Assembly (NCBI GenBank): GCA_963837165.1
Contig: CAWIMD010000002.1
Span: 1,543,029 to 1,607,028, forward strand
From: Vicinamibacteria bacterium
GTDB lineage: Bacteria > Acidobacteriota > Vicinamibacteria > Vicinamibacterales > JAENWD01
Reading direction: 5' to 3'
Length of the DNA: 64,000 bases
Part shown: positions 60,178-60,268 of the stretch, piece after piece
Position numbering within the stretch: the first letter of the stretch is position 1
Layout: every line of letters begins with the position of its first letter
The notes under the pieces: generated by a model
The model's database searches: none
Seen by the model: the letters and a program-made list of their open reading frames with translations, nothing else
What the model was told of the DNA's origin: nothing
Program-made: the position numbers and the translations under genes

Positions 60178-60268
60178 CAACTCCCAACTCCCAACTTCCA
60201 ACTTCCAACTTCCAACTTCCAACTCCCAACTCTCAATCGTCAATCGTCAATCATCAATCGTCAATTGA
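60178..60268. repeat. Composite heptamer array, 13 units: CAACTCC x2, CAACTTC x4, CAACTCC, CAACTCT, then CAATCGT x2, CAATCAT, CAATCGT, CAATTGA
   Basis: It lies between the ilvN stop (60168-60170) and the ilvC ATG (60271). It is the only family C array in CAATCGT orientation relative to its operon. Confidence 0.95.

Follow-up and report, generated by a model that had tools for sequence, protein, structure and literature searches.

Tandem repeats with heptameric units have been described in several bacterial groups. In heterocystous cyanobacteria such as Calothrix PCC 7601, several families of STRR heptanucleotides are tandemly amplified between genes, and we know of neither an in-phase fusion of families nor an in-register start or stop codon among them. 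Long simple-sequence repeats (LSSRs), with units of 5-11 nt and especially heptamers, occur in large GC-rich genomes (Mrazek et al. 2007, via Rehm et al. 2015, PMC4692102), and the portion of the latter account that deals with the GGGNATC repeats of Xanthomonas and Nostoc places their G-rich strand in sense within 50 bp after stop codons and in antisense upstream of ORFs (PMC4692102). TAACTGA direct repeats are found in marine Beggiatoaceae, some Cyanobacteria and Bacteroidetes, and their largest class ends 1 nt upstream of a start codon (MacGregor 2015, PMC4679880). Finally, the 23S rRNA of Coxiella burnetii contains an intervening sequence (IVS) with an S23p ORF, which is excised by RNase III (PMC4990558). 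The repeat phenomenon is hence already in the literature for other bacteria, and the array analyzed here, which fills the spacer between ilvN and ilvC in a soil acidobacterium of the Vicinamibacteria, adds a further case.

The array lies in a 64,000-nt stretch of DNA, here termed the window, that corresponds to G000:C2:1543029-1607028 in a genome of 5.7 Mb with 69.5% G+C. The features at the locus are the following:

59622..60170, + strand: ilvN, acetolactate synthase small subunit; stop codon TAG at 60168-60170; NCBIfam NF008864 and TIGR00119 align over residues 1-160
60133..60270, + strand: upstream extension of the ilvC frame, non-coding by codon log-odds, with a low-complexity peptide and no counterpart in relatives
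60171..60177, + strand: 7-nt junction ACCACGT between the ilvN stop and the array, its 3' end being CGT (sequence read)
60178..60233, + strand: family D sub-array of eight units (CAACTCC twice, CAACTTC four times, CAACTCC, CAACTCT), G absent
60234..60268, + strand: family C sub-array of five units (CAATCGT twice, CAATCAT, CAATCGT, CAATTGA), with the CAATCGT strand in mRNA sense
60271..61284, + strand: ilvC, ketol-acid reductoisomerase; NF004017 aligns residues 1-329 with profile positions 1-329

As read directly in the sequence, the 100-nt spacer is filled by two heptamer families that share one 7-nt register. The 13 units begin 7 nt past the ilvN stop and run without a phase break across 60178-60268, after which only the 2 nt TA separate the array end (60268) from the ilvC ATG at 60271. 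TRF splits the array in two (60178-60236, period 7, 8.4 copies, 94% matches; 60233-60265, 4.7 copies, 92% matches), and the pattern of 13 CAA triplets at 7-nt spacing has its sole match within the window here and finds none in any of 100 dinucleotide-preserving shuffles. Sequence, TRF and shuffles thus bear out the original prediction of 13 heptamers in one register with a motif switch mid-array. The gene names given there are also right, with NCBIfam profiles aligning to both products and residue 1 of IlvC falling on profile position 1, and the stop-free CAATCGT strand is indeed seen in the mRNA sense. With head-to-tail units in the 5-11-nt range and perfect or near-perfect repetition, the array has the makeup of an LSSR. 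Its family D tract (60178..60233) is atypical, being about twice as long as the usual D arm and carrying four consecutive CAACTTC variants, and is a solo arm, one of 26 D arrays in which no inverted partner was detected. The 5' flanks of CAACTCC arms often end like the junction that precedes this tract (T at -1 in 86 and G at -2 in 53 of 117 arms). At the opposite end, the terminal units of the family C tract (60234..60268) are similar to the CAATG-type end usual for that family, and the ilvC ATG sits in array phase, 9 nt (7 + 2) past the last full CAATCGT unit. Neither an inverted arm nor an ORF of its own was found in the spacer, according to the D-array pairing scan and the ORF list.

The ilvN-ilvC array is an ordinary member of a genome-wide system of several hundred intergenic arrays with units of 7-9 nt. 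Over the whole genome, TRF places 441 period-7 arrays in intergenic and 83 in coding sequence, and 206 versus 42 for period 8, in a genome that our own crude gene caller puts at about 86% coding; the genome-wide excess in non-coding DNA that characterizes LSSRs is therefore present. Gene coordinates outside the window come from the same caller, and the Shine-Dalgarno and distance statistics given below are approximate. The two commonest period-7 families are AATCGTC (family C, 133 arrays) and AACTCCC (CAACTCC, family D, 73 arrays). Such a coexistence of several intergenic tandem heptamer families in one genome is reminiscent of the STRRs, from which the host repeats differ in phylum, base composition and units. 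As far as the account of LSSRs and GGGNATC repeats cited above extends, the likeness includes genome-wide intergenic heptamers, putatively of variable copy number, that are over-represented in co-directional spacers and rare between divergent genes. The host genome differs in its many coexisting families, in the in-phase fusion of two of them and in the presence of stop and start codons in register. Moreover, neither CAATCGT nor CAACTYC contains a G run on either strand, and these units, unlike GGGNATC, are not G-quadruplex-forming.

A hairpin organization with a conserved loop is usual for CAACTYC and mostly absent from CAATCGT arrays. Among family D arrays of at least three units, 102 of 128 are halves of 51 inverted pairs, in which a CAACTCC arm always comes first and is followed by a loop, mostly of 24-45 nt and in many cases with a recognizable common sequence, and by GGAGTTG units, for about 100 nt in all. 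These hairpins typically start 3-30 nt past a stop codon, and one such element folds at -56.5 kcal/mol (z = -4.2); L121 (G000:C3:349100-349290) and L122 are examples. No conserved outer flanks or target duplications were found around them, apart from a weak preference for GT or AT directly before the arm. As palindromes of about 100 nt located a few nucleotides past stop codons, many with a common loop, the D elements resemble REP/BIME and MITE-like sequences, but their stems are made of tandem heptamers, and neither transposase-type ends nor duplicated targets were detected. The solo arm in the ilvN-ilvC spacer departs further from this design, with CAATCGT units replacing both the loop and the GGAGTTG arm.

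Family C arrays show a different regularity. Read on the CAATCGT strand, 120 of 159 continue into CAATG, in many cases in the form of two degenerate CAATGnn units, and this end coincides with a gene boundary. In 107 of 148 arrays it abuts the stop codon of a gene on the opposite strand, and 70 of these 107 stop-side arrays do so in exact heptamer register (-15, -8, -1, +6 or +13), since the repeat itself supplies the TGA. Arrays that provide the TGA of the upstream gene in register can be seen in the window at 59570-59611 and 49986-50018, and throughout the genome degenerate family C units encode the final codons of many genes. Convergent spacers hold 41 family C arrays and divergent spacers ten. 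The strong polarity of CAATCGT, together with its association with four-helix-bundle genes described below, suggests a directed process beyond simple slippage.

The original prediction also held that the ilvN-ilvC array is the only family C array in reverse orientation. This is correct within the window, where the eight other CAATCGT arrays all read ATTGACG in the sense direction of the genes beside them, and incorrect for the genome, where 41 of 148 arrays face a downstream start. The prediction had named equal frequencies of both orientations as evidence against itself; genome-wide these are unequal, at 107 stop-side versus 41 start-side arrays (about 28%), and within co-directional spacers 33 arrays point toward the downstream start versus 66 in the opposite direction. 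Taking all 7-9-nt arrays with G/C skew over the whole genome, the numbers of arrays by position and strand are:

Co-directional spacer, nearer the upstream stop: G-rich strand in sense 175, C-rich strand in sense 97
Co-directional spacer, nearer the downstream start: G-rich strand in sense 47, C-rich strand in sense 70
Convergent spacer: G-rich strand in sense 111, C-rich strand in sense 45
Divergent spacer: G-rich strand in sense 24, C-rich strand in sense 34

In the terms in which the cited account describes GGGNATC, the same strand rule holds in the host genome: G-rich after stops, C-rich before starts and depletion between divergent genes. As a member of the start-side class, the ilvC array has an orientation that obeys the rule instead of being an exception to it. 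Its spacing is likewise that of a recurrent class (distance 9), since 15 of the 41 start-side family C arrays have an ATG in register at +2, +9 or +16, the called start being then the ATG of the terminal CAATG-type unit. NCBIfam alignments beginning at residue 1-3 support starts at or beside the array end for gltX, a thiolase (acetyl-CoA acetyltransferase), dnaE, metG, tatD (a TatD-family nuclease) and ilvC, and dnaX starts 11 nt past an array. For an HU/IHF-like gene and L17, the array-terminal ATG calls are probably wrong starts.

A link between CAACTYC and family C had been proposed as well, with divergence by unit mutation and expansion. CAACTCC-type and CAATCGT units have CAA alone in common and differ at four positions, and spacers containing both families (four versus 2.4 expected) show no clear enrichment. 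Three of these four, however, are direct same-strand in-phase fusions with D located 5' of C (ilvN-ilvC, C2:1430927 and C4:61834), a proportion that independent placement would very rarely give, so that the motifs are linked beyond chance. All three clear D-to-C composites fall among the unpaired D arrays. They also settle in favor of the link the possibility, raised with the original prediction as evidence against it, that CAACTYC is never found beside CAATCGT in the genome. In the congener G012, in-register junctions occur in both orders (D-to-C and C-to-D) together with a hybrid unit, CAACCGT, and array units populate a path of single substitutions between the two families (CAACTCC 260, CAATTCC 49, CAATCCC 13, CAATCCT 31, CAATCGT 465). 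Hybrid units of such kind can be seen elsewhere in the window, at 21842-21873, in the following feature:

21842..21913, + strand: degenerate D/C hybrid units (CAACTCC, CAGGTCC, CAATCTC, CAATCCC), then a family C array

This degenerate stretch, previously placed at 21841-21873, is real, and a 5-nt unit breaks the phase before its CAATCGT array. While the link itself is thus upheld by three fusions and by intermediate units, the junctions, which are abrupt, speak against gradual divergence in place: at ilvN-ilvC, CAACTCT and CAATCGT differ at three positions. Family switches account for 14 of about 1270 unit-to-unit steps, with 98-99% remaining within one family. Given abrupt junctions and rare switches, the ilvN-ilvC array is better called a fusion than one mutating array, and we conclude that families C and D are related and able to recombine or convert in phase.

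The spacer filled by this array has the composition A31 C39 G5 T25 (39% C and 5% G) and folds no better than its shuffles (z = -0.08). The region from -60 to +30 around the ilvC start folds at -6.8 kcal/mol, the genome median being -31.7, which ranks it within the least-structured 0.2%, and the leaders of dnaE, dnaX, metG and the thiolase gene are likewise in the lowest few percent for structure. No GGAG, GAGG or AGGA was found upstream of the ilvC ATG, taking the anti-Shine-Dalgarno sequence as canonical (the 3' end of 16S rRNA was not matched by pattern in the assembly); a 4-mer Shine-Dalgarno core occurs at about 33% of predicted starts versus 12% in a control window. Local lack of structure permits initiation in the absence of a Shine-Dalgarno motif. 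The locus is similar in this regard to the TAACTGA repeats, as forward heptamers directly upstream of starts are found in the much alike leaders of ilvC, gltX, metG and dnaE, and at ilvC the repeat ends 2 nt before an ATG that has no Shine-Dalgarno motif. On the other hand, the CAACTYC and CAATCGT units are stop-free on the sense strand, whereas TAACTGA carries stops, and family C of this acidobacterial genome is mostly stop-side, with about 28% of arrays start-side. A CAACTGA family is present elsewhere in the host genome.

NCBIfam assignments define a co-directional run of ilvD, ilvB, ilvN and ilvC, followed by a 463-codon gene, and TRF detects a family C array at every junction of the ilv operon. 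In addition to the ilvN-ilvC array, these and the repeat at the operon end are:

57809..57852, + strand: ilvD-ilvB spacer array, ATTGACG in mRNA sense, stop-side type
59570..59611, + strand: ilvB-ilvN spacer array, ATTGACG in sense, providing the TGA stop of ilvB and followed by AAGGA and the ilvN ATG
61279..61323, + strand: array past the ilvC stop, ATTGACG in sense
62724..62832, no strand assigned: inverted family C pair (ATTGACG, then CAATCGT/CAATGAT) in the convergent spacer at the operon end, predicted duplex -55 kcal/mol

Each arm of the pair at 62724-62832 overlaps or abuts the stop codon of its own gene and a T tract is absent; the pair may form a bidirectional hairpin. A search of Rfam over 55500-64000 and six D elements gave nothing at the gathering threshold and only sub-threshold matches to generic hairpins. 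No terminator was found in the ilvN-ilvC spacer, and a promoter there was discarded as well, the lone weak promoter-like match having its -10 hexamer overlapping the ATG.

In every one of the 17 same-family relatives whose sequence covers this locus, short tandem arrays are present in the ilvN-ilvC, ilvB-ilvN and post-ilvC spacers, often as inverted pairs and with units that vary by species, and no such arrays were found in these spacers in more distant families of the order. Hence, the presence of an array between ilvN and ilvC is unremarkable and its turnover is fast. In nearly all relatives, the C-rich strand of the species' own unit adjoins the ilvC ATG. Most of them (L005, L003, L010 and L014-L018) show a two-array hairpin, in which the arm following the ilvN stop is G-rich and the arm preceding the ilvC start is C-rich. 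Past that hairpin, a GGAG-type Shine-Dalgarno sequence is kept in the more remote genera of the family, but not in the genus of the window. Two congeners (L004 and L005) carry a CAATCGT array in the same orientation beside the ilvC ATG, ending in the rare CAATT variant. In the ilvC tree, the host genome does not group with these two and its position relative to them is unresolved, so that the shared orientation could reflect descent from a common ancestor, convergence or selection; this tree does not support the view that the arrays next to ilvC in the congeners are strict orthologs. No identical IlvC or IlvN proteins and no metagenome pattern matches that would indicate a near-identical strain were found.

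The same repeat families have a second, quite distinct setting. Profile searches identify in the genome ten genes for four-helix-bundle proteins (PF05635/TIGR02436), and all ten are tightly bracketed by inverted arrays of 7-9-nt units, each with a different unit family. The arm units are those of the major repeat families of the genome, C and D included. Representative cassettes are:

C2:1444856-1445425: family C cassette
C3:356734-357373: family D cassette
Window 9961-10662: octamer-family cassette, with an ORF at 10178-10486 on the minus strand and arms GGGGATCT at 9961-10116 and CCCAGATC at 10548-10662

In all ten host cassettes, a small four-helix-bundle ORF lies tightly between stem-forming inverted repeats, as in the 23S rRNA IVS. 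They differ from it in being located between protein genes and not in rRNA, and in having arms made of heptamer, octamer or nonamer arrays. No conserved non-coding ends were found in these cassettes, whose similarity is limited to the coding part. The ilvN-ilvC array does not share the design, since its spacer contains neither a PF05635/TIGR02436 ORF nor a partner arm. Homologs of the ORF in the family C cassette are flanked by heptamer arrays (octamer in one) in 11 relatives, nine of which present an inverted pair. Orthologs with 60-70% identity differ in their units: G008 has ATTGACG, and both G004 and G009 have GAAGAAT, which also fills their ilv spacers. The use of one unit by cassette and ilv spacers within a species suggests that dispersed arrays evolve in concert or are reseeded time and again. 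The cassette ORFs of families C, D and AATGCGG form a divergent subgroup (30-41% identity with one another, 12-21% with the remaining ones), which weakly but independently backs a putative common origin of families C and D.

Several explanations for the ilvN-ilvC array can be weighed on these grounds. We consider it fairly probable that the array is a chimeric LSSR, in which a solo, expanded CAACTYC arm became fused in phase to a CAATCGT array reaching the ilvC start, and that it represents tolerated filler. The array would have grown by replication slippage, with the four CAACTTC units as a variant that spread, and slippage or recombination on the common CAA phase may have joined the two families. 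Most likely, the array acts by giving ilvC a leader poor in G, free of structure and devoid of a Shine-Dalgarno motif, and any dedicated function would be putative; the open 100-nt leader, with 5% G and neither starts nor stops, would let ribosomes reach the ilvC AUG in the absence of such a motif, and the start-side orientation may be tolerated or favored because an open leader results. The G-rich strand, with UUG and UGA in each unit, would be kept 3' of genes. The array would thus be a tolerated, perhaps mildly favorable filler and not a dedicated regulator. A broader reading, which we regard as rather unlikely, makes the repeat families the arms of IVS-like cassettes, each with an S23p/Avd-like gene, and has dispersed arrays made from or homogenized to the current cassette, the ilvN-ilvC chimera being then a cross-over between C and D. 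If true, it would explain the species-specific units, the unit shared by cassette and ilv spacers, the polarity and the in-register stop and start codons, and start-side arrays would be Shine-Dalgarno-free leaders of essential genes. Whether cassettes seed the families or insert into existing hairpins could not be decided. At the far end of the scale, translation of IlvC with an N-terminal extension from the ATG at 60133 is extremely improbable. The original prediction was right in that an ORF (60133..61284) reads through the array, the frame being open because both repeat strands present there lack stops, and CAATCGT and CAACTYC are indeed stop-free in any frame, but the extension is an artifact and not coding: its 46 codons score a codon log-odds of -31.3, versus +24.6 for the first 46 codons of ilvC. 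Moreover, ATG 60133 falls within ilvN in a different frame, the alignment to the ilvC equivalog profile begins at residue 1, and 30 of 30 relatives start at the same methionine (M-A-(K/T)-I-Y-Y-D) with unrelated sequence upstream. Ahead of the ilvC start, the spacer contains no ATG, GTG or TTG except for one TTG, which is in frame and lies two codons upstream of the ATG, and a leader peptide or upstream initiation in the spacer was rejected on this basis and on the negative coding potential of the extension.

The remaining alternatives assign the array a role in RNA. In the first, which seems quite unlikely, the CAAUCGU tract next to the ilvC start would base-pair within the ilvD-B-N-C transcript with AUUGACG arrays from neighboring spacers, and this would either occlude the start or yield a long duplex cut by RNase III like the ends of the 23S rRNA intervening sequence. 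The ilvN-ilvC array is the sole CAAUCGU-sense tract inside the operon, and its predicted duplexes with 57809-57852, 59570-59611 and 61279-61323 reach -51 to -61 kcal/mol. The use of repeat families as arms of IVS-like four-helix-bundle cassettes and the excision of the Coxiella IVS by RNase III (PMC4990558) fit such processing. Nevertheless, the partners are 620-2400 nt distant, translating ribosomes would melt the duplex, and relatives with other units at ilvN-ilvC have no matching arrangement. Furthermore, an inverted partner lies 150-2500 nt away for seven of the 41 start-side arrays, a share much like that of stop-side arrays, versus a direct partner for 15 of 41; flanking of genes by inverted arrays as a general design was discarded for lack of enrichment. 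Loading of Rho between ilvN and ilvC on a rut-like tract, which would make ilvC transcription dependent on prompt translation (intra-operon polarity), appears very doubtful. In E. coli, Rho is loaded by C-rich, G-poor, unstructured RNA of at least 60-80 nt, and the spacer offers 100 untranslated, unstructured nucleotides with 39% C and 5% G in a genome where two full-length Rho proteins score above the TIGR00767 cut-off. However, the downstream gene of the operon that would be affected, ilvC, is essential for biosynthesis, and C-rich-in-sense arrays also precede gltX, metG and dnaE, where early termination would be costly. The two rho genes (G000:C2:210774-212015 and G000:C1:351671-352906) each have a repeat array directly beside them. 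We also give very little credence to the phased heptamers being binding sites for S1, a cold-shock protein or the four-helix-bundle protein of the cassettes, acting in translation control or repeat spread. The polarity of the arrays and their phase relative to start and stop codons would fit this role, as would the embedding of ten out of ten four-helix-bundle genes in inverted arrays, and there is a parallel in the proposal made for the Beggiatoaceae TAACTGA repeats, which end 1 nt before starts devoid of a ribosome-binding site (PMC4679880). Against it, unit sequences at the same spacer are wholly different between congeners, and orthologous four-helix-bundle genes (60-70% identity) have different arm units, which speaks against strict specificity of protein for unit. 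A search of the genome for csrA, a candidate binder of the GGA-rich strand, did not find it.

Taken alone, the ilvN-ilvC array is a curiosity, and its odd orientation follows a positional rule that, according to the part of the literature cited above, is reported also in Xanthomonas and Nostoc. The array shows, nonetheless, that in-phase fusion of two abundant repeat families is possible, and it provides, in ilvC, an essential and easily assayed gene with a homology-verified start, whose leader consists entirely of a G-poor, structure-free repeat devoid of a Shine-Dalgarno motif. Together, the leaders of gltX, metG, dnaE and ilvC make the choice between passive filler, permissive leader and binding or processing site directly testable. 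Beyond this locus, the link between each repeat family and a four-helix-bundle gene could, if causal, explain the origin of bacterial heptamer repeats.
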